The notes: generated from the letters alone by a model not told the origin. A stretch of 64,000 bases of DNA from Minisyncoccota bacterium (GCA_018063165.1 JAGOQU010000002.1:77471-141470), one strand, 5' to 3'. Numbered from the stretch's first letter, positions 4,710-63,019 are shown. A program made the numbers and translations.

Positions 4710-5705
4710 ATGAAAAATAAAAATAATAGCTTTGTATTATTTGGAGCAATTGGTTTGATTATATTTGCATTATTTATAGCAACTTTTACAAAGAGTAATT
4801 CTTGGCTTTTGGGTTCAGATTTTATGAATACATATAATGCTACTCCTAATTCTGTACTTGTGGATGTTAGAACTCCTGGTGAGTTTTTGACAGGACATAT
4901 TGATAAAGCTGTTAATATTGATTTTGAGAATCAGTCATTTCTTTCAGAGATTAAAAAACTTGACGTAAATAAAACATATTTCATTTATTGTCGCTCTGGC
5001 AATAGATCAGGACAGGTTATTTCTTTGATGAAAGCAAATGGAATAAAAAATATTTATGAACTACAAGGAGGAATTGTTTCTAATAAAAACACTATAACAC
5101 TTGTAACAGCAAATATCAGTGAGCCAGAATATGTTATTGATGAAAGTGATATGATTAATGGTCAGGCTCTTATTTCAGGAATAAAAAAATCAGAATTAAC
5201 TGAAAAGGAAAAACTTGGGCTTATTCAAATGCGTGAAGAAGAAAAATTAGCTCGAGATGTATATACAACACTTGGAAATGTATGGGGTACAAGAATCTTT
5301 TCTAATATTGCTTCTTCGGAACAAACACATACCGATGCTATAAAAGTGCTTCTTACAAGGTATACTATTAAAGACCCTGTAATAAATGATACTGTTGGAG
5401 TGTTCACTTCAAAAACTATGCAAGAACTTTATGATAATCTTGTTTCCCAAGGAAAAGTTTCATTATCAGAAGCTTTTAAAGTTGGTGCCACTATTGAAGA
5501 TTTAGATATTCATGATTTGGATATTCTTAAAAATGAAACAACGAAGGAAGATATTTTACTTACATACAACAATTTACAGAAAGGGTCTCGTAATCATTTA
5601 AGAGCTTTCGTAAGAGTAAGTGGTGTTAACTATACCCCTAAATATATTAGTCAGTCAGATTATGCTTCAATCATTAGCTCTTCTCAAGAAAGAGGGAGAC
5701 AGTAA
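4710..5705 (+). CDS. membrane-anchored rhodanese domain fused to a ferritin-like (DUF2202-type) domain
   Basis: N-terminal transmembrane segment. Rhodanese motifs VDVRTPGEFLTGHIDKAVNI and YCRSGNRSGQ. The C-terminal half (EEEKLARDVY ... SEQTHTDAIKVLL ... RNHLRAF) resembles the ferritin-like DUF2202 family. Start placed at the ATG after the glutaredoxin stop. Confidence 0.55.
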   Translation: MKNKNNSFVLFGAIGLIIFALFIATFTKSNSWLLGSDFMNTYNATPNSVLVDVRTPGEFLTGHIDKAVNIDFENQSFLSEIKKLDVNKTYFIYCRSGNRSGQVISLMKANGIKNIYELQGGIVSNKNTITLVTANISEPEYVIDESDMINGQALISGIKKSELTEKEKLGLIQMREEEKLARDVYTTLGNVWGTRIFSNIASSEQTHTDAIKVLLTRYTIKDPVINDTVGVFTSKTMQELYDNLVSQGKVSLSEAFKVGATIEDLDIHDLDILKNETTKEDILLTYNNLQKGSRNHLRAFVRVSGVNYTPKYISQSDYASIISSSQERGRQ

Positions 5706-13338: not shown

Positions 13339-13752
13339 ATGAAAAAACAAGACGCTTCGATGCCTAGTGTTCACATGGACTATCATCCTAAATTAGTTAA
13401 AGAGGGTGTTTTTATTCTTGAAGAAGAAGTGTGGAGTACTCAAAAGCGTATAGCACGTATTTATGGTAGAAGTATTCCTACAATAAACGATCATCTTAAG
13501 AAAATATATCAAGAAAAAGAACTCATGAAAGCTTTGAGTGAACGTATACTTATGGTTACTCAACAAGAGGGGAAGAAAAAGGTTGCGAGAAAAACATATG
13601 TGTATAATAGTGATATGGTTATTGCTATAGGTTTTCGTGTGAAAGGAGAGTGGGGTAAAGAGTTTCGTGTATGGGCACGTGAAGTGGTAAGAGCGAGTTA
13701 TGATCCAAGAGATCAGGTAAGACATCTTATAGGTAGTCACCCCTTAGGATAA
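13339..13752 (+). CDS. RhuM-family protein, N-terminal fragment (truncated)
   Basis: 137 aa. QKRIARIYGRSIPTINDHLKKIYQEKEL ... GFRVKGEWGKEFRVWAREVV matches the N-terminal region of RhuM-family proteins, which are about 330 aa full length. Its 3' end overlaps the convergent FAD-oxidase gene. Confidence 0.45.
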   Translation: MKKQDASMPSVHMDYHPKLVKEGVFILEEEVWSTQKRIARIYGRSIPTINDHLKKIYQEKELMKALSERILMVTQQEGKKKVARKTYVYNSDMVIAIGFRVKGEWGKEFRVWAREVVRASYDPRDQVRHLIGSHPLG

Positions 13753-21034: not shown

Positions 21035-21448
21035 ATGGCTAAGAAAATTACAAAATACGTTAAGGTTCAGATTGAAGCAGCAAAAGCTACTCCTGCTCCA
21101 CCACTTGGTCCTGCACTCGGACAGGCTGGTGTACAGATTGGTGATTTCGTTAATAAATTTAACGCTGCAACTCAAGGACAAACAGGAAGAATGTCAGTTA
21201 AGATTTATGTGTATGAAGATCGTACATACGACTTTGTTATTAAGACTCCTACTGCTACATCACTTGTTATGAAAGCTGCAAATGTTGCAAAAGGTAATTC
21301 AAAAGGAAAAGCTGGAACAATTTCAAAGGAAAAAATCCGCGAAATTGCAACACTTAAACTTAAAGACCTAACAGCTCATACTGTAGAACAGGGAATGAAG
21401 ATTATCGAAGGTACAGCTCGTTCAGCAGGAATCGCTGTTGTAGCATAA
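21035..21448 (+). CDS. rplK: 50S ribosomal protein L11
   Basis: 137 aa. PPLGPALGQAGVQIGDFVNKFN is the L11 signature. Confidence 0.9.
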   Translation: MAKKITKYVKVQIEAAKATPAPPLGPALGQAGVQIGDFVNKFNAATQGQTGRMSVKIYVYEDRTYDFVIKTPTATSLVMKAANVAKGNSKGKAGTISKEKIREIATLKLKDLTAHTVEQGMKIIEGTARSAGIAVVA

Positions 21449-21465
21449 CCCTCTATCTCTAGAAA

Positions 21466-21497
21466 CAAAAAACCGCATAGTTGCGGTTTTTTGTTTT
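21466..21497 (+). terminator. rho-independent terminator after rplK
   Basis: AAACCGCATAGTTGCGGTTTTTTGTTTT. Confidence 0.7.
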
Positions 21498-21563
21498 GCA
21501 GTGTAGGATTGTCATAGCCCTGGAAACAGGATTACTGTTATTTACAAAGAAAGAGATAGTTCT

Positions 21564-22676
21564 ATGCATAAAATATCTGGTGTGTTTAGCAAAGCAGATT
21601 TTGAGCGTTTGATTTGTTCTAGGCGAATTAAGACACTTAAAGGTTTCAAAGAGGACCATCTTAATCCTGCTTCTCTTGATATTACAACAACAGGAGAAGT
21701 TTTTCGTATTAACCGTCTACTCCAACCAAGTCAACTTGAAAATGAGACAGTTAGAAGTCTACTTTCAAAGATGGAAGCAGATCAAGTTCATGTTGGATCT
21801 GTTATGGAAGTTGGTGCTACATATTTAGCAAAAGCTAGTATAGATATTAACTTTCCTCCTGGTATGTATGGATATTTGAATGCAAAATCAAGCTGTGGAA
21901 GGAATTTTCTTTTCGTGAGATCTCTTGCTGACGGTATTCATGAATTTGATTCCGTTGATAGAAGAAATCATGGATATACAGGGGAATTGTGGCTTGTTAT
22001 CCAACCACTTGCTTTTCCTGTAATTCTTTCTGATAAAGAATGTTACAATCAACTTCGTGTTTTTGATGCTGATACTCGTTTTAGTAAAACTGATCTAGAA
22101 CAACTTCTTTGCGAAAGAGATATTTTATATAGGCGTAATCAGGAGCCATATAAACAAGGTGAGCTTTCTCTTTTTACTAATGATGGTTCTGTACTTTGTA
22201 CGTTAGATGCTTTACCAAAGAAACATGTTGGATATAAAGCAAAAAGTACAAATGTACCAATAGATCTTACAAAAAGAAAATCACTTAACCCTCATGATTT
22301 TTTCGATCCAGTGATTGCAGAATCTTTTGGTGAAGGGAAATATGATGGTTTTGTGCATGTTGAGGCTGGTCATCATTATTTACTTGCTACAAATGAGATG
22401 CTTAAAATTTCTGTTGACTATACAGCAGAATTAACAGCGCTTGACCCTCGTCTAGGTTTCTTTTTTACCCATTTTGCAGGTTTTTTTGATCCTGGCTTTT
22501 TTGGAACAGGAACGTTAGAAGTGTTTGCACCTCATAATACATTTCTTAGACACAAACAACCTCTTGCGCGCTTTGTTTTTGAGAAAATGAAAAATAAAGC
22601 ACCATCGTATGCAGATAATGGTAACTATAGTGGTCAAATCGAAACACAATTACCAAAACAGTTCGCTGATTGGTAG
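21564..22676 (+). CDS. dcd: 2'-deoxycytidine 5'-triphosphate deaminase, long (about 365 aa) form
   Basis: 370 aa. The C-terminal half (HFAGFFDPGFFGTGTLEVFAPHN) and AKSSCGRN align to Dcd motifs (GRSSLAR and DPGW.G...LE). The length matches the long-form Dcd family. Confidence 0.55.
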   Translation: MHKISGVFSKADFERLICSRRIKTLKGFKEDHLNPASLDITTTGEVFRINRLLQPSQLENETVRSLLSKMEADQVHVGSVMEVGATYLAKASIDINFPPGMYGYLNAKSSCGRNFLFVRSLADGIHEFDSVDRRNHGYTGELWLVIQPLAFPVILSDKECYNQLRVFDADTRFSKTDLEQLLCERDILYRRNQEPYKQGELSLFTNDGSVLCTLDALPKKHVGYKAKSTNVPIDLTKRKSLNPHDFFDPVIAESFGEGKYDGFVHVEAGHHYLLATNEMLKISVDYTAELTALDPRLGFFFTHFAGFFDPGFFGTGTLEVFAPHNTFLRHKQPLARFVFEKMKNKAPSYADNGNYSGQIETQLPKQFADW

Positions 22677-22680
22677 TATA

Positions 22681-22712
22681 AAAAAAACGGTCCTCGGACC
22701 GTTTTTTATTTT
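22681..22712 (+). terminator. rho-independent terminator
   Basis: AAAAAAACGGTCCTCGGACCGTTTTTTATTTT. Confidence 0.7.
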
Positions 22713-22724
22713 TGATATACTATA

Positions 22725-23147
22725 GTGATGAAACTTAAAATTAAAAAATTATACGAAAATACAAAATTACCAACACGAGCTCATCATGATGATGCTGGAA
22801 CTGATATGTATGCACAAGGTGATCACATTGTAGAACCTCACACAACTGTTGTAATTCCAACAGGTGTTGCTATGGAATTAGAAAAAGGATATGTGTCACT
22901 TATTTGGGATAAATCTTCAGTTGGATCAAAAGGTATTAAGACATTGGGTGGAGTGATTGATGCAGGGTATCGTGGGGAATATAAAATCATTGTTCATAAT
23001 TTGAATAACGAAGCATATACGTTTACACATGGAGATAAGGTTGCACAACTCCTCGTACAAAAAGTTGAATTTCCAGAACTTGAGGAGGTTGTTGAACTTA
23101 ATGATTCGACACGTGGAGAAGGGGGTTTTGGAAGTACAGGGAAGTAA
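22725..23147 (+). CDS. dut: dUTP diphosphatase
   Basis: 140 aa. AGTDMYA, GVIDAGYRGE and the C-terminal RGEGGFGSTG dUTPase motifs. Confidence 0.85.
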   Translation: MMKLKIKKLYENTKLPTRAHHDDAGTDMYAQGDHIVEPHTTVVIPTGVAMELEKGYVSLIWDKSSVGSKGIKTLGGVIDAGYRGEYKIIVHNLNNEAYTFTHGDKVAQLLVQKVEFPELEEVVELNDSTRGEGGFGSTGK

Positions 23148-23231
23148 CCTCTGCTATTTCTTATTGTTTTAAAGTGTGTAATAAAGAAAAATAAAAAAGC
23201 GATACGTGTACACGTATCGCTTTTGCTGTTT

Positions 23232-24182
23232 TTAAGTCAGAAGAGTCGCACCAATTTTTCCTTGATTCTTATAGTCAATGATTCGAATATCATCCATGGT
23301 AAAAGAGTCTATGTCTTTTATTTCTGGATTAAGCCAAAGTTTAGGTCCTTTGTTAGGAGTTCTTTCTAATTGTTTATTTACAGCTTTTAGATGTCCGTTT
23401 TTCCATACAGGTTTTTTTTCTGCATCAAGACCTGCAAGGTAAATATGACAGTCTTCAAGTGTAATAACAAGCTCCCCAGGAATCATTCCTACACACTGAG
23501 CAACCATGTGATTTAGCATTGCATAACTTGCAATATTGAAAGGTTCTCCAAGAAACATATCACATGACCGTTGATCCATTGAAGTATCAAGATACATTTT
23601 CTTATCGCGTCTATGGCTTGGTCTTACAAAGAATTGCATCTTCATATGGCACGGAGGTAAACACATGTCATCAAGTTCTCCGGGGTTCCATGCATTAACA
23701 ACATGATAACGCATGAAAGGGTCTTCTTTTAACTGTCGTATTACTTTTGCTAATTGATCAATTGAATTACCTTCTGTTGTTTTCCAATCTCTCCATTGTG
23801 CACCGTAAATACGACCGCAGTCTCCTTCGAATTGAGCTCTACCTTTTTTTGCAAAATTTAACTGATCTCCAGTCCACACATTTTTTGCATTAGAAGGTTT
23901 ACCCATTAACTCATTGAATTTTGCTATAGATAGTCTGCCTCCGGTTTCTTTACCTGCATCAAGTAACCAAAGAAGTTCTGCTTTAATAACTTCAAAAGCT
24001 GTAAACTTTGTAGTTATAAGAGGAAAGTTTTTTTGTAAATCAAAGCGCATTTGATGTGCAAAAATTGCAGTGGTAATACCATTGCGACCTTTTCGTCTTG
24101 TTCCTTCTCTTTTTATTTTTCTAAGTACCTCTAGATATTCATCTTCATTTGGGTTAATTCTCGGTATTAATGTAATCATCAT
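23232..24182 (-). CDS. thyA: thymidylate synthase (ThyA family)
   Basis: PPCHMKMQFFV and QRSCDMFLGEPFNIASYAMLNHMVAQ are near-identical to the E. coli ThyA active-site region. The start was moved to an internal ATG preceded by GGAGG, because the track ORF has a 25 aa N-terminal extension. Confidence 0.8.
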   Translation of the reverse strand: MMITLIPRINPNEDEYLEVLRKIKREGTRRKGRNGITTAIFAHQMRFDLQKNFPLITTKFTAFEVIKAELLWLLDAGKETGGRLSIAKFNELMGKPSNAKNVWTGDQLNFAKKGRAQFEGDCGRIYGAQWRDWKTTEGNSIDQLAKVIRQLKEDPFMRYHVVNAWNPGELDDMCLPPCHMKMQFFVRPSHRRDKKMYLDTSMDQRSCDMFLGEPFNIASYAMLNHMVAQCVGMIPGELVITLEDCHIYLAGLDAEKKPVWKNGHLKAVNKQLERTPNKGPKLWLNPEIKDIDSFTMDDIRIIDYKNQGKIGATLLT

Positions 24183-24354
24183 TTTTCCTCCAAAAAGTTT
24201 ATGTAAAGAACTGGTGTATACCAAACAAACTCTACATGTTTTTTGTCTTTGAAGCAACTCTATGTTTTATTTGTTATATTTTCTTTTTATTTTTAAAACT
24301 ATTGTGTTAGTATATGCTTCTAAACTATCGTTCTTTTACATATAAGGAGATGTG

Positions 24355-25050
24355 ATGAAAACTGGAAAAGTAGGAAAACGCACAAGGTTAATTTTAATAG
24401 AAGGAGATGACGTTTCTTCTAAAGAAAAACAAACAAAACTCTTAGTTAACCAGCTTCGAAAAGAAAAATACACAGTTGCAAATATTTCTTTTCCTTACTA
24501 CATACAAACATTTACAGAGTCTTTTAACGGAAAACCAGAAACCAGATTTTCACCATTTGATTATTCAGAGGTTTATAAAGATGAAGCAAAAACCTTTTGC
24601 ACTTCTAAAGGAGAAGATTTTGCATCTTGTTTAGAAGCTTTAATTAAAGAAAATGACATAGTTGTTTTTGATAGATATATTGAATCTAATTTACTTTTTT
24701 ATGGTTCTCAGATTTTAATGGATATTGATAAAATTAATTTTGCTCATTATCTGTTTAATGCTGAATATAAAATTAGCAAGATGCCAAAACTTTCTGATGT
24801 GGTGTATCTTTCTGTTCCTTGGAGTCTTATGCATAAAAGATTTTTATTAAAAAATCCTCATATAGATACTTCTTCTGAACAAGTAAAGAATGACATTGAA
24901 GCAATAAAAAAACAATATGAATCTGGGAATTTTTATTCTAAATTATTAGAATGGAAAATGGTTAGTTGCGTATCTGATTTTCGTGATCTTTCTGAAGAAG
25001 AGGTTCATAATCATATTATGGCTTTGTTAGGGTTTAGGTGCCATATTTAA
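24355..25050 (+). CDS. thymidylate kinase-like protein with degenerate P-loop
   Basis: LILIEGDDVSSKEKQ aligns to the Tmk P-loop (IEG.DGSGKTTQ) but reads GDDVSSKE. VVFDRYIESNLLFYGSQ matches the Tmk DRY motif. AAGGAG lies 5 nt upstream of the ATG. Confidence 0.5.
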   Translation: MKTGKVGKRTRLILIEGDDVSSKEKQTKLLVNQLRKEKYTVANISFPYYIQTFTESFNGKPETRFSPFDYSEVYKDEAKTFCTSKGEDFASCLEALIKENDIVVFDRYIESNLLFYGSQILMDIDKINFAHYLFNAEYKISKMPKLSDVVYLSVPWSLMHKRFLLKNPHIDTSSEQVKNDIEAIKKQYESGNFYSKLLEWKMVSCVSDFRDLSEEEVHNHIMALLGFRCHI

Positions 25051-25121
25051 TTTTTTTAAACCAATTTTACATAGTAAAATTGGTTTTTCTTTTTATTATT
25101 TTGAAAATAAGGTAGTATATA

Positions 25122-26825
25122 GTGATGAATGCTTATAATATAATAACGCAAGAAATAAAAAAAATAGTAGGTGAGGGTGTTGATTTTTCTGTTTCTATTT
25201 CAGAAGATTTTTCTCGAGGTGACTATTCAACAAATCTTGCTTTTGTTCTTGGTAAACAAAAAAGTATTACTCCGAATATGTGTGCTGAAGAACTTGTTCC
25301 AATTCTACAAGAAAAACTTATTGCTGTTGTAGAAAAAATAGAAGTTGCTGGACCTGGCTTTATTAATTTTTCTTTGAAGAAAGAAATTATAAGAGAAGAA
25401 ATTTTGAGATGTCAAAAATTAGAAACATTTACAACAAAATACACAGATAAAAAAGTTCTGGTTGAACACTCATCTCCAAATCTTTTTAAACCATTTAGTG
25501 TTGGTCTCCTTCTTAATCATATTGCTGGAGCATCACTTACCCATCTTATGAAAGCAGGGGGTGCAAAGGTTACAACAGTTTCATTCCCTTCAGATATTTC
25601 TATGGGTATTGCAAAAGCAGTGTACTCAATAAAAAAAGATGGTGGACTTTCTCAAGACATTTTTAATAAAAGTCAGGAAGAGGTTATTGCATATCTTGGC
25701 AGTGCATATACCCGAGGCGTCACATCATTTGATGAATCAGAGTCTGTACAAGGAGAAGTAAAAGAAATTGCAGAGAAACTCTATAGTGAAACACCAAGTG
25801 AAGAGTTCGATATTTTTGAAAAAGGGAAGAATATAAATGTTGCATATTTTGAACACATGCTTTCACTTCTTGGTTCACATTTTGACGGATTCATTTATGA
25901 AAGTGAAGCAGCTGTAGTTGGTAAAGAGATAGTACTTGCACGAGAGGACATATTTACTCATAGTGAAGGTGCTATTGTGTATATTCCAGACGAGGGGACA
26001 AAGGGTGTGCATACGGCAGTATTTATTAATAGTCAAAGGAATCCAACATATGAAGCAAAGGATCTTGGTCTCCTTCATATGAAATTTGAACGTTACACCC
26101 CGGACTATTCTTTTTTTGTTACCGATAATGAGCAAATCTCTCATTTTAATGTTGTGCTCGATGCTGCTTCAAAAATTGAAAAGAAATGGAAAGAGGTGAG
26201 CACTCATGTGTATCATGGTCGTATGACATTTAAGGGTCAGAAGATGTCGAGTAGACTTGGAGGCGTTCCTCTCGCACAAGAAATTTTGGATGTTGTTACA
26301 GACGAAGTAAAAGAAAGATCTGGTGAAAAAATAGATCATCTTACAGAAGAAGAAAAGAACGTCGTATACAAGCAGGTTGCGCTCGGAGCGCTTCGCTTCT
26401 CTATGCTCCGCTCGAAACTTGGTAGTTCAATTAATTTTGATCCAGAAACATCACTCTCATTTGAAGGAGATTCTGGTCCATATGTGCAGTACACCTATGC
26501 ACGAGGAGTATCACTTTTAGCAAAAGGAAAAGAATTAGGATTTTCACCATCGTATCATTCTGGAGAAGAAGTTACGATTCTTGAAAGAAAACTCATGCAG
26601 TGGGAAGGGGTTGCTTTGCGTGCCATAGAAGAAATAGCTCCTCAATATGTTGTAACTTATCTTTTTGAGCTTGCTCAGATGTTTAATAGTTTCTATGCAT
26701 CGACTCCAATTGTTGTAAAGGGTGATGATCTCTCAGAACATAGACTAGCTATTACAGAATCTGTAACGAAAGTGATTAAAAAAGCACTACACCTTCTCGC
26801 TGTTGAAGCACCAGAGAGAATGTAG
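25122..26825 (+). CDS. argS: arginine--tRNA ligase
   Basis: 567 aa with overall ArgRS architecture, a QKMSSR variant of KMSKS and a C-terminus ending APERM as in bacterial ArgRS. The HIGH position appears to read SVGL by eye. Confidence 0.75.
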   Translation: MMNAYNIITQEIKKIVGEGVDFSVSISEDFSRGDYSTNLAFVLGKQKSITPNMCAEELVPILQEKLIAVVEKIEVAGPGFINFSLKKEIIREEILRCQKLETFTTKYTDKKVLVEHSSPNLFKPFSVGLLLNHIAGASLTHLMKAGGAKVTTVSFPSDISMGIAKAVYSIKKDGGLSQDIFNKSQEEVIAYLGSAYTRGVTSFDESESVQGEVKEIAEKLYSETPSEEFDIFEKGKNINVAYFEHMLSLLGSHFDGFIYESEAAVVGKEIVLAREDIFTHSEGAIVYIPDEGTKGVHTAVFINSQRNPTYEAKDLGLLHMKFERYTPDYSFFVTDNEQISHFNVVLDAASKIEKKWKEVSTHVYHGRMTFKGQKMSSRLGGVPLAQEILDVVTDEVKERSGEKIDHLTEEEKNVVYKQVALGALRFSMLRSKLGSSINFDPETSLSFEGDSGPYVQYTYARGVSLLAKGKELGFSPSYHSGEEVTILERKLMQWEGVALRAIEEIAPQYVVTYLFELAQMFNSFYASTPIVVKGDDLSEHRLAITESVTKVIKKALHLLAVEAPERM

Positions 26826-43079: not shown

Positions 43080-43691
43080 ATGCATCCAAAAAAAGAAAGA
43101 ACATTTGTTATCCTTAAGCCAGACGCAGTACAGCGTGGTCTTGTTGGAGATATTATTAAGCGTTTCGAGCGTATTGGTCTTAAGATTGTAGGCATGAAAA
43201 TGCATATGGTCAATGAGCAAACACTTTGGGATCATTATAATAAAGACGATGCTTGGTATATAAAGAAGGGAAGTAATATTGTTGAGAATAAAAAGAAGCT
43301 TGGCATGGTTGTAGATAAGGAACCTATTGAGTATGGAAAGGATATTATTCGTGCGATGGTGCACTACATGTGCGCTTCACCAGTAGTCTCACTTGTTATT
43401 GAGGGTAACGGTGCTCAGTCTGTAGTAAAGCGTCTTGTAGGAAGCACAGAACCATCAACAGCGGATACTGGAACTATACGTGGTGACTATTCACTCGATT
43501 CATACTATCTTTGTGATACAGATGGTTCACGTGGTATGCGTAACCTTATTCATTGTACAGATCCAGCAGATGGTGAGGGTGCATATGAAAGAGAGGTTAA
43601 TCTTTGGTTTACTAAGGAAGAAGTTATGAATTATCGTCTCGTTTCAGAAGCGATGCTTTATGATGTTAATCTTGATGGAATTCTTGAATAA
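43080..43691 (+). CDS. ndk: nucleoside diphosphate kinase (long form with insertions)
   Basis: TFVILKPDAVQRGLVGDIIKRFE and NLIHCTD (catalytic His region) match NDK. At 203 aa it is long compared with the usual 140 to 150 aa. Confidence 0.7.
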   Translation: MHPKKERTFVILKPDAVQRGLVGDIIKRFERIGLKIVGMKMHMVNEQTLWDHYNKDDAWYIKKGSNIVENKKKLGMVVDKEPIEYGKDIIRAMVHYMCASPVVSLVIEGNGAQSVVKRLVGSTEPSTADTGTIRGDYSLDSYYLCDTDGSRGMRNLIHCTDPADGEGAYEREVNLWFTKEEVMNYRLVSEAMLYDVNLDGILE

Positions 43692-46699: not shown

Positions 46700-47275
46700 A
46701 TGAAACAACAACGAATTACAATTAGTGTGTCAGGTGCAGCAGAAATTGCTCATTGCGGTCCTACAGTTATTCCTATAGCAAAGGAACTAGGGCGTGAGAT
46801 CGCTCGCCAAGGGTGTCAAATTATTACTGGTGCAACAAGTGGTTTTCCAATGTATTCTGCAGAAGGCGCAAAAGAAGCTGGTGGTTTTTCTTTTGGTCTT
46901 TCTCCTGCAGCTAGTAAAAAAGAACATTTGGAAGTGTATCGTCTCCCATTAAAAGCAATGGATACTGTTATTTATACAGGATTTGGTTTCCCTGGACGTG
47001 ACCTTATGCTTATACGGTCGTCAGACGCTGTTGTTGTCGGCTGTGGACGAATTGGGACAATTCATGAGTTTACTGTTGCCTGGGAGGCAAATATGCCTCT
47101 TGGTGTGCTTACAGGGGAGTGGGCAACAGATGAAGTAATACAAAATATCATTAAAAATAGTGGTAGAACTAATCCAAATGTTGTCTTTGAAAAAGATCCA
47201 AAAATAATGATAGAAAAGCTTATTGAAATGGTAAGAAAACAAGAAGTGAATGGCGAAAGAGAAATGAGATTATAA
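46700..47275 (+). CDS. TIGR00725-like Rossmann-fold protein (LOG/SLOG superfamily)
   Basis: ITGATSGFPMYSAEGAKEAGGFSFGL and VVGCGRIGTIHEF resemble the LOG-family and TIGR00725 patterns. Confidence 0.4.
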   Translation: MKQQRITISVSGAAEIAHCGPTVIPIAKELGREIARQGCQIITGATSGFPMYSAEGAKEAGGFSFGLSPAASKKEHLEVYRLPLKAMDTVIYTGFGFPGRDLMLIRSSDAVVVGCGRIGTIHEFTVAWEANMPLGVLTGEWATDEVIQNIIKNSGRTNPNVVFEKDPKIMIEKLIEMVRKQEVNGEREMRL

Positions 47276-59558: not shown

Positions 59559-59771
59559 ATGTCACCACTTGGAATTAAACGAACCGTTGCTTTTCTTCTT
59601 ATTTTTTCACCGTGGATTTTTGTACCCGATATAACTAAAGATATTTTTTTTATTTTTGCGGGTATATTTTTATTAATAAGTACTCTTGATTTACGTAAAA
59701 AAGTTATTATACATCCTGATCATCAAGAAACCGAAAGTTACCCTGTAAAAGACCATATTGTTAATTCATGA
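59559..59771 (+). CDS. hypothetical small membrane protein
   Basis: 70 aa, two hydrophobic segments. Overlaps the next gene's start by 4 nt. Confidence 0.3.
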   Translation: MSPLGIKRTVAFLLIFSPWIFVPDITKDIFFIFAGIFLLISTLDLRKKVIIHPDHQETESYPVKDHIVNS

Positions 59772-60958
59772 AACTAGCGATTGCTACCAGTCTTGTGTTT
59801 GGTGTACTTATTTTTTGGGTATTGTATAGCGGTCATAAACATGTTTCTTTTGTAAAAGAGTTCGGTAAAGAAGAATATGTAATAGATACTGGTGCTAGCG
59901 CTACTACAACTTTAGAGGGAGGTACTTCTTTGTCTTACGCTACAACAACAGCAACAACCACAAAAAGTATTACTCATATACAAACACCTGAACATGTAAA
60001 ATCTATTTATATGTCTTCTTGGGTAGCCGGAACACCATCGATACGTAATAAGCTTGTAAAGCTTATCGAAGATACAGAATTAAATGCAGTTGTGATAGAT
60101 GTAAAAGATAACACTGGGATTATTTCTTGGGATGGTCGTATCAGGGATCTTGAAGATTTTATAGAAGAATTACATAGTAAAAATATTTATGTTATTGCAC
60201 GTATTGCAGCTTTTCAGGATCCATTATATGTAAAAAGATTTCCAGAAGAGGCTGTGCGTTCAAAAAAAACAGGTGAAGTATGGAAAGATCATAAAGGTAT
60301 ACCGTGGGTAGATTCTGGTTCAAAAAAAATGTGGGAATATGTTGATTATCTATCTAAAGAAAGTTACAAAAGAGGTTTTGATGAAATTAATTTAGATTAT
60401 ATTCGTTTCCCTACCGATGGGGTGCTTTCTGATATGACGTTTCCTATAAGTGGGAAAAATGGAACTATTGTAAACAAGCCACAAATTATCGGTGATTTTT
60501 ATCACTATATAACAGATTCGCTTCGTAAAGAAGGTGTGCCTGTATCGGGTGATCTTTTTGGTATAGTAATGGTTACTAAAGTGGATATTGTTGTGTTAGG
60601 TCAAGACATGCATACAGCACTTGAAACATTTGATTATGTTGCTCCAATGATATACCCATCACACTTTTATGCAGGAACTGCAGGGTATCAAAAACCTGCT
60701 CTTCATCCTGGTGAAATCATAGATTATTCTATGAGGCTTGGTATAGCAATTGCAGATGAAGTTGCAAGTAGTACACAAGTAGCAACAAGTACTATACGAG
60801 CAAAATACAGACCATGGTATCAAGATTTTGATATGGGAGGAACATATACTGCAGACATGGTGAGGGCACAAATAGACGCTGGAGAAAAGCTTGGAATTAA
60901 TTCATGGATGTTATGGGATCCTGCTAATACATATACAAAAGAAGCGTTAAAAAAATAA
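59768..60958 (+). CDS. membrane-anchored secreted protein, putative TIM-barrel glycoside-hydrolase-like (GHL/DUF4015-type)
   Basis: N-terminal transmembrane helix and a Thr-rich linker. VVIDVKDNTGIISWDGRI ... IYVIARIAAFQD ... INLDYIRFP resembles predicted glycoside-hydrolase-like TIM-barrel families. Confidence 0.4.
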   Translation: MKLAIATSLVFGVLIFWVLYSGHKHVSFVKEFGKEEYVIDTGASATTTLEGGTSLSYATTTATTTKSITHIQTPEHVKSIYMSSWVAGTPSIRNKLVKLIEDTELNAVVIDVKDNTGIISWDGRIRDLEDFIEELHSKNIYVIARIAAFQDPLYVKRFPEEAVRSKKTGEVWKDHKGIPWVDSGSKKMWEYVDYLSKESYKRGFDEINLDYIRFPTDGVLSDMTFPISGKNGTIVNKPQIIGDFYHYITDSLRKEGVPVSGDLFGIVMVTKVDIVVLGQDMHTALETFDYVAPMIYPSHFYAGTAGYQKPALHPGEIIDYSMRLGIAIADEVASSTQVATSTIRAKYRPWYQDFDMGGTYTADMVRAQIDAGEKLGINSWMLWDPANTYTKEALKK

Positions 60959-61036
60959 TTAATACCGTGTATCTCTTACGTGTGATTTAGTGTTATTCTC
61001 TACCACCCTCTAGATAAAGGTTGTATACTGTGTAGT

Positions 61037-63019
61037 ATGTCAGATGGTGAACATCAAAAAATTACATATCTAGGAAAGATTGATTATCGTGATAAACAGG
61101 TAACTTTTGGTATTAAAGAAAACGACAGAACTAAGCATACCTATATCATAGGTAAATCAGGTATGGGTAAATCAACACTTCTTGAAAATTTAATTATTCA
61201 AGATATTACTGGTGGAGAAGGTGTATGTGTTATTGATCCTCATGGGGCATTAGCAGAAACAATACTTCATTATATTCCAGAATCTCGCATTAAAGATGTT
61301 GTTTATTTTGCTCCTTTTGATGGAGATTTTCCTATGGGTCTTAATATGCTAGAAAAAGTGTCAGCAGAAAAAAGATACTTGCTAGCAAATGGTATGATGT
61401 CTGCGTTTAAGAAAATTTTTACCGACGGTGATGGTAAGGGGACATTTTCTGCACGTATGGAATATGTTCTTAATAACATTATTCTTGCACTTCTTGAAAA
61501 TGAAGGTCAGACACTTCTCGGTGTTAACAGAATGCTTTTTGATAAAGAGTATAGAAAATTTATTGTGAGTAATGTAACAGACCCAACAGTAAAAGATTTT
61601 TGGGTAAATGAATATGCTAATTATACAGACAAAACTGCTCAAGAACTTGCTCCTTCAATACAAAATAAAATAGGTCAATTTGTGTCTAATCCACTTATTA
61701 GAAATATTATCGGTCAAAAGAAAACATCCTTTGATATACGAAAGATAATGGATGAGAAAAAGATTTTTATAGCTAATCTTTCAAAAGGGAAAGTTGGCGA
61801 AGGAAATGCAAATCTTCTTGGTTCTCTTCTTATTACAAAAATATATTTAGCTGCGATGTCACGCGCTGATGTTGACGTGTATGAAGCAAAGAATTTACCA
61901 CCGTGTTATTTTTATGTGGACGAGTTTCAAAACTTTGCCAATGAATCTTTTGCAAGTATTTTGTCAGAAGCTCGTAAGTATAAACTTGCTCTTACTGTTG
62001 CTCATCAATATATAGAACAAATGACAGATGAAGTGAGATCTGCTGTTTTTGGAAACGTTGGCACTATGATTACATTTCGCATTGGTGCAACAGATGCAGA
62101 GATTTTTGAAAAAGAATTTGCTCCTAAATTTGTCCTTGATGATTTTGTGAATCTTTCCGCATATCAAATTTATTTACGTCTTATGATTGACGGTCAGGGT
62201 TCACAACCATTTTCCGCTAGAACACTTCCGTCAACAGAAAGACCTGTACATTCGTATGAACAAGCTGTCATAGCTTATTCACGTTTAGAACATGCAAAGC
62301 AAAAGTTTTTGGTTGAGGATGAGATTATGGAATTTTATAAACCTGTACCAAAAGTAGAAAAAATAAAAACAGAGATACCTTCTCCTGATGTAAAGTTTTT
62401 AAAAGTGAATGAATATAAAAATGAACAACCTTCATATCCATCAAAACGTAATGACAGCTTTAAACGTTTTGATGCTAAGAAAAATAATGAGGAAAGAAGA
62501 TATCAGACATCTCCAATCACAAGATATGATTCTCCTGAAAGAAAAGATGAGAAGCAGAATATTGCTCATTCTTCTGTAGATACTGCACAAGCCGTTGTTG
62601 CTAATTCTGAGCCAACCACAGTTGTTCATAAAGAAAACAATATAGAAAAAAATAACAGAAGAGAAGAACAAAAATATATTCCTGAAATAGAAAAAAAAGA
62701 AATTAAAATTGAAAGTGTGTTTGATACAGTAAAACAACCTGTTTATAAAAAAGAATATGTTGACAAAACAGTAGAACAAAAACCTACTCCAGTTTTTGAC
62801 GATAAGCCAGCAATGTCTCTTAAAGAAGCTCTAGAAAAAGCACTTAAAGATCAAAAGCCAATAACAGAAAATGTGTACCAAAAGAAAGAGGTGACAGATC
62901 AAGAAGATATAAACAATGGTGAGGTAAAAGATAGAAAAATAAAAGAAGACATGCAAGTTTCTTTACCTAAGAAGAAAGAAGTACCAGAAGATGTTCTTCG
63001 AAAATTGATAGAAGAATAA
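61037..63019 (+). CDS. type IV secretion coupling-protein-like (TraG/TraD/VirD4 family) P-loop ATPase with K/E-rich C-terminal tail
   Basis: Walker A IIGKSGMGKST, DPHG, Walker B YFYVDEFQNF and ARKYKLALTVAHQYIEQM match the T4CP patterns (hhhhDE and the A.QS..QL sensor). No N-terminal transmembrane domain. The last 230 aa are low-complexity. Confidence 0.5.
   Translation: MSDGEHQKITYLGKIDYRDKQVTFGIKENDRTKHTYIIGKSGMGKSTLLENLIIQDITGGEGVCVIDPHGALAETILHYIPESRIKDVVYFAPFDGDFPMGLNMLEKVSAEKRYLLANGMMSAFKKIFTDGDGKGTFSARMEYVLNNIILALLENEGQTLLGVNRMLFDKEYRKFIVSNVTDPTVKDFWVNEYANYTDKTAQELAPSIQNKIGQFVSNPLIRNIIGQKKTSFDIRKIMDEKKIFIANLSKGKVGEGNANLLGSLLITKIYLAAMSRADVDVYEAKNLPPCYFYVDEFQNFANESFASILSEARKYKLALTVAHQYIEQMTDEVRSAVFGNVGTMITFRIGATDAEIFEKEFAPKFVLDDFVNLSAYQIYLRLMIDGQGSQPFSARTLPSTERPVHSYEQAVIAYSRLEHAKQKFLVEDEIMEFYKPVPKVEKIKTEIPSPDVKFLKVNEYKNEQPSYPSKRNDSFKRFDAKKNNEERRYQTSPITRYDSPERKDEKQNIAHSSVDTAQAVVANSEPTTVVHKENNIEKNNRREEQKYIPEIEKKEIKIESVFDTVKQPVYKKEYVDKTVEQKPTPVFDDKPAMSLKEALEKALKDQKPITENVYQKKEVTDQEDINNGEVKDRKIKEDMQVSLPKKKEVPEDVLRKLIEE

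Follow-up and report, generated by a model that had tools for sequence, protein, structure and literature searches.

The window considered here, i.e. the whole stretch of 64,000 nucleotides (64 kb) at JAGOQU010000002.1:77471-141470 (GCA_018063165.1), is low-GC DNA (30-37% G+C) of a metagenome-assembled genome of 'Candidatus Pacebacteria' (Patescibacteria/candidate phyla radiation, CPR). It carries secE, nusG, rplK, dcd, dut, thyA (minus strand), a gene related to that of thymidylate kinase (Tmk), and argS in this order. On balance, we consider the 231-aa product of the Tmk-like gene (24355..25050, plus strand) to be a retained, catalytically impaired Tmk derivative at the tmk locus, that is, a probable pseudoenzyme. 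The kinase is probably crippled or repurposed and not the normal last step of a pathway from dCTP via dUTP, dUMP, and thymidine monophosphate (dTMP) to thymidine diphosphate (dTDP).

In the original prediction, dcd, dut, thyA, and the kinase gene were described as lying contiguously after rplK, and both their identity and their arrangement are borne out by Pfam and NCBIfam profiles and by the coordinates. They were furthermore regarded as a complete dTTP-synthesis module. The four genes are indeed real and contiguous, but "complete" goes too far, since catalytic residues of the kinase are lost beyond the P-loop. A second, separate assembly of run SRR11088409 is identical to the window DNA at 5,507 of 5,507 bases.

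Substituted and retained residues of the Tmk-like protein

When 1.84 billion representative proteins were searched exhaustively with phmmer, 925 homologues were obtained at E <= 0.001, the nearest being 36% identical; 127 of these were aligned with the window protein to derive residue frequencies. The subfamily consensus of the P-loop is G-x-D-G-x-G-K-x-T, whereas the window protein has G17-D-D19-V20-S-S22-K23-E-K25 (24403..24429, plus strand); direct translation of this segment agrees with the predicted reading G-D-D-V-S-S-K-E. Position 20 (Gly in 92 of the 127 homologues) is occupied by Val, position 22 (Gly in 123) by Ser, and position 25 (Thr in 122) by Lys, and none of these three residues was observed at its position in any homologue. 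The P-loop substitutions are not due to chance variation. As had been predicted, the Lys is kept and a hydroxyl is lost, the latter two residues past the Lys (T25K). The Glu directly after the Lys, however, is normal for this subfamily, in which the position varies (Ala in 36, Glu in 35, Gln in 11, others in the remainder, and Ser or Thr in only 16 of 127), and both later glycines are lost instead of one.

Deviations were also observed outside the P-loop. The near-invariant D-x-x-E, which corresponds to Asp163 and Glu166 of the Mycobacterium tuberculosis thymidylate kinase (Mtb TMPK) and is present with Asp and Glu in 123 of the 127 homologues each, is replaced by E175-Q-V-K178 (24877..24888, plus strand). 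In the paper describing the structure 1g3u, Glu166 is said to help hold the phosphate-contacting Mg2+. In the lid, K161 and R162 are kept, but Lys166 is situated at the site of the main Arg, which 80 of 127 homologues have. Gln116 and Leu54 are replaced too, by residues absent from the family. Both members of a conserved D-R pair (Mtb Asp73-Arg74) are gone, including the Arg equivalent to Mtb Arg74, which is Arg in 98% of the homologues. Due to the poor alignment of residues 50-90, the Arg74-equivalent site is either A78 or G86 and the Phe70 equivalent either Y74 or C82, depending on the alignment. In a site table based on hmmalign, this variable segment was misaligned, for which reason columns 74, 77, and 78 of that table were disregarded. 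At positions 20, 22, 25, 78, 175, and 178, the residues of the window protein occur in 0-1% of the 127 homologues. Deviations from near-invariant sites amount to 7 of 20 in the window protein and 12 of 20 in its orthologue at locus L002 (see below). Nine close canonical relatives have 70 invariant columns in common; of these, 32 are kept by the window protein, 37 by the L002 protein, and 35 by Mtb TMPK, which is from another phylum.

Asp19, Lys23, Gln26, Phe46-Pro47-x-Tyr49, Asp106-Arg107-Tyr108, Asn112, Glu137, and core positions are kept. The DRY motif (24670..24678, plus strand) equals D94-R95-Y96 of Mtb TMPK, and the predicted alignment to Tmk including DRY thus holds, as does the Tmk fold. 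In Mtb TMPK, the thymine ring stacks on Phe70, is in cation-pi contact with Arg95, and receives hydrogen bonds from Arg74 and Asn100, while Asp9 binds a sugar hydroxyl and the phosphate contacts Arg95, Tyr39, and Mg2+ (PMC3619541).

A small separate group of homologues, P0050 (L006), P0077, and P0149, carries G22F together with Asn in place of the following Gln, e.g., EGLDCSFKETN. It is otherwise canonical at all catalytic sites, and the genomic context recovered for it is one 1.5-kb contig. This group may represent a functional non-glycine variant of the P-loop.

Fold and profile scores

The gene starts with an ATG at 24355, preceded by AAGGAG at 24344-24349, and its product is labelled "hypothetical protein KBC41_01725" at NCBI. 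The comparison with PF02223 that was proposed alongside the original prediction gave 28.0 bits, which is above the cut-off of 27, but the N-terminal half alone was matched. The NCBIfam dTMP kinase models were not reached (TIGR00041, 24.7 versus 83.25 bits; NF005923, 42.9 versus 193 bits). Pfam scores fall stepwise from about 63 bits in canonical relatives to 28 in the window protein and no hit for the L002 protein. Likewise, with a hidden Markov model built from 126 canonical members, the window protein (152.6 bits) and the L002 protein (135.7 bits) score below all others among 152 sequences (family, 249 +/- 23), which places the window protein more than 4 standard deviations (SD) below its subfamily. 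Because P-loop and lid-acid features as well as the NCBIfam equivalog thresholds fail, the protein should not, as far as can be judged from its sequence, be annotated as a functional dTMP kinase.

An AlphaFold2 (AF2) model built on, and dependent on, a 128-sequence alignment reached a predicted local distance difference test score (pLDDT) of 88 and a predicted TM-score of 0.84. The beta1-loop-alpha1 element is P-loop-shaped and modelled confidently (residues 11-40, pLDDT 94-97), and residues 50-90 are of low confidence (pLDDT 53-79 by 10-residue block). Foldseek retrieved 318 PDB matches at E <= 0.001. The 50 that were listed are without exception thymidylate kinases, with Mtb TMPK entries as the best ones. 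According to the model, this is a Tmk-fold protein, and both fold and descent place it in the Tmk superfamily. A different, P-loop-less family, which had been mentioned as an alternative, was rejected in view of the Tmk fold and the positional orthology to canonical tmk described below. Other origins were dismissed as well: PADLOC gave only a spurious 13-bit SspC match for a defence system, and PHROGs gave only the thymidylate kinase family (29 bits) for a phage. Matches to engineered proteins in the PDB (OR276 etc., E ~0.005) are low-complexity coincidences over about 30 residues.

Orthology and accelerated divergence

The window gene is the positional orthologue of a canonical single-copy tmk of the Mtb type. 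Locus L002 (14.7 kb) has the order rplK-dcd-dut-folA-thyA(minus)-tmk-like-argS-..-ileS-recO, locus L008 the order nusG-rplK-x-dcd-thymidylate synthase-tmk-argS-..-ileS, and locus L012 the order dut (70% identical to the window)-thyA (66%, minus)-tmk. Adjacency of tmk and argS was observed in L002, L003, L004 (with glyA between), L008, and L010. L003, L004, L008, and L012 carry P-loops of the type EGSDGxGK(E/A)T at the same slot, in L008 and L012 as EGSDG(A/T)GKET. The thymidylate block between rplK and argS-ileS is kept even in relatives with an IleS identity of 47-49%, and its content varies, comprising dcd, dut, thyA or a ThyX-like ORF (open reading frame), folA, glyA, and tmk.

The kinase is far less conserved than its neighbours. 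Between window and L002, identities are 95% for RplK, 72% for Dcd, 71% for Dut, 73% for IleS, 64% for RecO, and 82% for a permease, but only 30% for the Tmk-like protein. In case of L008, RplK (92%) and IleS (73%) are similarly close, and the window kinase is only 36-37% identical to the Tmk proteins of L008 and L012. The pair L008 and L010, in comparison, has 51% identity in Tmk and 49% in IleS, versus 36% and 73% for window and L008. A calibration with 45 canonical locus pairs gave Tmk identity = 0.97 x Dut identity - 3 (SD 8.2). On this basis, 65% identity is expected between the Tmk proteins of window and L012 and 37% was observed (z -3.4), and 66% is expected between window and L002 and 30% was observed (z -4.4). 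The window and L002 proteins lie 2-4 SD below the calibration line against every reasonably close relative. In a neighbour-joining tree they form a sister pair, and no other terminal branches are as long as theirs.

The L002 protein (P0004) is the more decayed one. It has GPDSDIKKT as P-loop, with Ile for the glycine before the Lys, SLPCH for SFPxY, EHY for DRY, and N112V, so that DRY, Asn112, Phe46, and Tyr49 are all lost. That ATP:dTMP phosphotransfer is lost or badly weakened can be inferred with greater certainty for L002 than for the window. Since the two genomes changed the same positions to different residues, relaxed catalytic constraint is a better description than a new active site common to both. 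An atypical nucleotide-binding mode or an altered substrate, as implied in the original prediction, could still apply to the window protein, but relaxed constraint, i.e. a pseudoenzyme, fits better, considering the losses outside the P-loop, the low score against the subfamily, and what the L002 orthologue lost in addition.

Degenerate forms are rare. A profile scan of metagenomes with the Tmk alignment added 72 Tmk loci, all with canonical P-loops, and no further members of the degenerate clade were found among 5.8 billion sequence clusters, of which two contain it. A word-indexed protein search with the kinase matched only the query itself. A metagenome scan with the Dcd alignment found nothing, and scans of genome contigs with Dcd found only UBA6899 (L005), where dcd and thyA are adjacent and no tmk is nearby.

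Parts of the neighbourhood show a mosaic pattern relative to its flanks. ArgS is 52% identical between window and L002 and 38% between window and L008, though IleS is 73% identical in either pair, and the ArgS of L002 is nearer to that of L010 (58%), whose IleS is only 49% identical. Dcd identity amounts to 72% for window and L002 and 44% for window and L008. The segment from dcd to argS may have been exchanged between lineages. On a metagenomic contig (L047, 1306-2937), two canonical tmk genes are arranged in tandem, which shows that tmk duplication occurs in the Mtb-like subfamily.

Retention under selection

Both carriers have an uninterrupted, full-length ORF (231 aa in the window and 228 aa in L002). 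The other five frames of the window gene contain 13-34 stops, and the probability of 231 open codons by chance is 6.5e-10 at the same base composition. Mismatches between the two proteins are conservative, with a mean BLOSUM62 score of -0.41 compared to -1.16 in a shuffled null (z 6.5). Strong Shine-Dalgarno sites are situated upstream of both genes, and the window gene has its own terminator. Judged from the substitution pattern, purifying selection for a folded protein continues.

These observations bear on the alternative of a dying gene, i.e. a missense-decayed pseudogene without function. It could draw on the lost catalytic residues, the accelerated divergence, and the restriction to two clusters among billions, and CPR genomes are reductive in general. 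On the other hand, full-length ORFs have survived in both genomes, between which the products of neighbouring genes share just 52-82% identity (RplK, 95%), stops are confined to the other frames, core residues are kept, and substitutions are conservative. A dead pseudogene was rejected because of the intact ORFs, the strong ribosome-binding sites, and the conservative substitutions, and we regard the dying gene as very unlikely.

Derived states common to both proteins, and rare or absent in other homologues, are E178K, D147S, and an extension of the N-terminus by about 8 residues with G7-K8. Due to these shared states and the grouping in the neighbour-joining tree, the data suggest that decay set in before the two lineages separated and that both have retained the gene ever since, although long-branch attraction or convergence could be responsible instead. 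The extension precedes beta1 and reads KTGKVGKRT in the window (24355-24387) and EIENIGKTA in L002 (3914-3946); canonical relatives begin with M(T/A)ARLI. It is GKxT-like, but situated at the wrong end of beta1 to stand in for the P-loop.

Upstream enzymes

The dcd gene (21564..22676, plus strand) encodes a 370-aa protein which scores 89 bits for DCD_N (cut-off 21.4), 107 bits for DCD, and 80 bits for DCD_C (cut-off 22; PF06559 and PF22569), and stays below the cut-off of the NCBIfam equivalog NF005734 (179 versus 283 bits). Its best PDB match is 2r9q, a 370-aa 2'-deoxycytidine 5'-triphosphate deaminase (E 1.8e-31, residues 5-352), and by these profiles it has the two-domain architecture of the long-form enzyme. 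The dUTPase encoded by dut (22728..23147, plus strand, 139 aa) reaches 104 bits with PF00692 (cut-off 22) and 135.7 bits with TIGR00576 (cut-off 102.55) and carries the glycine-rich motif RGEGGFGSTGK at its C-terminus.

ThyA (23232..24182, minus strand, 316 aa) scores 276 bits with PF00303 (cut-off 24.3) and 250.9 bits with TIGR03284 (cut-off 108.35). It is of the long, Lactobacillus casei-like type with insertions, and L. casei thymidylate synthase entries (316 aa, E 2e-58) are its best PDB matches. The near-canonical active site that had been predicted was found: in an alignment with E. coli ThyA, R21, E58, Y94, R126, C146, H147, Q165, R166, S167, D169, N177, H207, and Y209 are kept, which includes the catalytic Cys-His and the QRSxD segment, and R127 to Tyr is the sole change among the active-site residues compared. 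In contrast, the N-terminal extension in the raw ORF, which starts with TTG at 24257, is not real. The 316-aa form is supported by a GGAGG that precedes the ATG at 24182 by 5 nt, and the same start was obtained in an independent gene call. The products of dcd, dut, and thyA look functional.

The minus-strand slot upstream of tmk is occupied by a different thymidylate synthase in each of three genomes with IleS identities of 72-73% among them, at 23232-24182 in the window, 2286-3763 in L002, and 4613-5770 in L008. The window ThyA is 40% identical to E. coli ThyA, and its L. casei-like type occurs also in L009, L012, and L079 at 66-67%. In L002, the slot contains an E. coli-like ThyA (68% identical to that of E. 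coli) together with folA, and in L008 a 386-aa ORF with a sub-threshold match to ThyX (Thy1; 24.2 bits versus a cut-off of 24.8). This looks like repeated replacement in place. The dihydrofolate reductase gene folA adjoins thyA in L002, L018, L025, L032, L055, and L067; none adjoins the window thyA, and none was found among the window ORFs in a Pfam scan, which was not exhaustive.

The intact upstream pathway favours the alternative that the protein still is the dTMP kinase of the cell, with a remodelled non-glycine P-loop and with Lys25 and Lys178 standing in for the charges of Thr, Glu, or Mg2+. In that case, the block as a whole would be functional from dCTP to dTDP. The maintenance of dcd, dut, and thyA implies that some dTMP kinase is required, either this protein with an unusual activity or another kinase. 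The presence of ndk in the window, the retained Asp19, Lys23, FPxY, DRY, and Asn112, the otherwise canonical G22F homologues, and the purifying selection on the ORF speak for this alternative too. Moreover, no second Tmk-like ORF and no other nucleoside monophosphate (NMP)-kinase-like P-loop was found within the 64-kb window. A phmmer search of the window with E. coli Tmk was too insensitive, as it did not detect the Tmk-like gene itself. A canonical tmk elsewhere in the genome, for which a check had been proposed, was looked for within the 64-kb window only, and there is none there. Evidence to the contrary comes from six residues that are conserved in 72-98% of the 127 homologues and replaced by ones occurring at 0-1%, from the failed NCBIfam equivalog models, and from the L002 orthologue with EHY for DRY, without Asn112, Phe46, and Tyr49, and with Ile before the Lys. 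Because L002 lost these sites, a function common to both proteins is unlikely to be dTMP phosphorylation. We therefore rate a still active dTMP kinase as rather unlikely, though worth serious consideration.

Interpretation

The reading of the Tmk-like protein as a retained pseudoenzyme is based on the following course of events. In this group of Patescibacteria, a single-copy Mtb-type Tmk is encoded between the thymidylate synthase slot and argS. In the lineage of window and L002, tmk evolved about twice as fast as expected and lost the P-loop glycines and Thr (G20V, G22S, T25K), i.e. residues shaping the ATP phosphate-binding loop, the Arg providing a hydrogen bond to the thymine ring (Mtb Arg74), and, in the lid, the acidic Asp/Glu pair (Mtb Asp163/Glu166 to E175/K178). 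In the window protein, the fold, the hydrophobic core, Asp19, Lys23, F46-P47-x-Y49, DRY, and Asn112 are retained. Canonical ATP:dTMP phosphotransfer would presumably be lost or severely weakened, and purifying selection maintains the protein, presumably because of a non-catalytic or altered role. The dTMP supplied by dcd, dut, and thyA would then be phosphorylated by another kinase encoded outside the window.

Several points weigh against this reading. The retained residues together with the P-loop-shaped beta1-loop-alpha1 element of the AF2 model leave room for residual or modified kinase activity, and the model, being dependent on its alignment, says nothing on activity. The G22F homologues indicate that this subfamily may tolerate residues other than glycine before the Lys. 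The upstream pathway is intact and selected, and no alternative dTMP kinase was found in the 64-kb window. Furthermore, gene transfer could partly confound the relative-rate calibration, because the segment from dcd to argS is mosaic among the relatives. Finally, the degenerate form is present in only two genomes.

It is conceivable, at a small probability, that the degenerate protein is the only dTMP kinase, operating with an active site without P-loop glycines, Thr, and the metal-associated Glu, in which Lys25 and Lys178 supply the charge of Mg2+, Thr, or Glu, in a so far undescribed and possibly metal-independent P-loop chemistry. The mirror image of this idea is a so far unrecognised non-orthologous dTMP kinase with the old Tmk as its non-catalytic partner.

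Tmk is essential and single-copy in almost all cellular life and is usually annotated by homology alone. Automated pipelines label the product of this locus either "hypothetical" or, via the weak Pfam match, "thymidylate kinase", despite its decayed catalytic signature. The main question raised is the source of dTDP in these organisms. If the protein is inactive, these ultra-small symbionts need dTDP from elsewhere, via an unrecognised kinase or the host, and this bears on the reading of metabolic reconstructions of CPR genomes. If it is active, the known range of appearance of P-loop kinases is widened. A probable Tmk-derived pseudoenzyme that a small CPR lineage has kept at the tmk locus would be a clean natural example of an essential enzyme turned into a retained pseudoenzyme at its own locus, a case comprising two uncultivated genomes only.

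Further features of the window

Upstream of dcd, rplK (ribosomal protein L11; 21035..21448, plus strand; Pfam Ribosomal_L11_N and Ribosomal_L11) serves as an anchor of the locus. Genes of nucleotide metabolism, and not rplA, are situated directly downstream of rplK in the window (21448-21564) and in L008, L010, L067, and L068. The downstream anchor is argS (25125..26825, plus strand; Arg_tRNA_synt_N, tRNA-synt_1d, DALR_1).

Terminator-like hairpins follow dcd (22682..22707, plus strand, 11-pair stem and T run) and the kinase gene (25058..25086, plus strand, 13-pair stem and T run). A bidirectional one with a 13-pair stem, scoring on either strand, is located between the convergent dut and thyA (23195..23224). 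Six terminator-like sites were observed compared to 1.5 expected from shuffles.

The gene for nucleoside diphosphate kinase, ndk, which provides the step after Tmk, is located 18 kb away (43080..43691, plus strand; PF00334, 113.9 bits). The protein is 203 aa long and its Pfam match is split in two stretches, which suggests an insertion inside the otherwise ~140-aa domain. The window also contains a 137-aa RhuM-family fragment (13339-13752), a SLOG cluster4 protein (46700-47275), and a DUF4015 gene followed by one for a 660-aa TrwB_AAD_bind protein (type IV coupling-protein-like, with Walker A; 59768-63019).

Comparison with known systems

Literature searches returned nothing specific on Tmk decay in Patescibacteria or on Tmk pseudoenzymes. 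The best sequence matches to the window protein anywhere are canonical Tmk orthologues of Patescibacteria (P0002/L008, L009/L012, L013, P0003/L004) with 32-37% identity. They occupy the same slot and have the same length, but keep 20 of 20 near-invariant sites at 51-66% mutual identity, in contrast to the 7 deviations of the window protein.

Mtb TMPK (TMPKmt; 1g3u, 1gsi, 1n5l; PF02223) has the same fold, with a target-normalised TM-score of up to 0.77 among the top Foldseek hits. The family of the window protein shares with it the subfamily signature of a variable residue after the P-loop Lys (Mtb Lys13-Arg14), Thr one position further, SFPxY, and DRYxxSN. Equivalents of Mtb Asp9, Lys13, Phe36, Pro37, Tyr39, Arg95, and Asn100 are kept in the window protein, which differs by G20V, G22S, and T25K, by the lost Arg74 equivalent, and by Glu and Lys for Asp163 and Glu166. 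Sequence identity to Mtb TMPK is only 18-20%, and segment 50-90 is poorly modelled.

A related kinase fold as a structural subunit is known from NDUFA10, an accessory subunit of mitochondrial complex I with the deoxynucleoside kinase (dNK) fold. It is, however, eukaryotic, belongs to a different family (dNK), and resides in a large complex, and its match to the window protein is not significant (E ~0.1).

The Tmk superfamily has been exapted before. The catalytic and regulatory subunits of the Tmk-derived polyphosphate kinase PPK3 were once annotated as thymidylate kinases, and rPPK3 (Saci_2020) is the regulatory, non-catalytic subunit. Its gene is a paralogue located beside ppx and the gene of the catalytic subunit, with the true dTMP kinase being encoded separately at another place in the genome, and an adjacent pair of Tmk paralogues in a ppx/CHAD/SixA neighbourhood is the defining context of PPK3 (PMC12995831). 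A neofunctionalised kinase with another substrate or donor, either another (d)NMP or a polyphosphate-type one, would also be compatible with the loss of the thymine-recognising Arg74 equivalent, which may reflect a changed base specificity, and with a fold under purifying selection. Neither ppx, CHAD, nor a second Tmk partner adjoins the window gene, and its neighbours are thyA and argS as in canonical orthologues. The two carriers differ at the same positions (Ser/Ile at 22; Ala/Gly or Lys at the Arg site; Glu/Asn at 175), as in relaxation and not in convergence, and Foldseek has no preference for the PPK3 homologue 5h70 (rank 29, E-value like that of many Tmk proteins). We thus hold a neofunctionalised kinase to be quite unlikely. 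A PPK3-like role in particular was rejected on gene context, with a single Tmk-like ORF in 64 kb between thyA and argS. As a probable pseudoenzyme, the window protein differs from rPPK3 in that it is the decayed orthologue, encoded at the very locus of tmk, which neither a partner gene nor genes of polyphosphate metabolism adjoin. Nevertheless, rPPK3 is its nearest functional analogy, as a Tmk homologue kept for a role other than dTMP phosphorylation.

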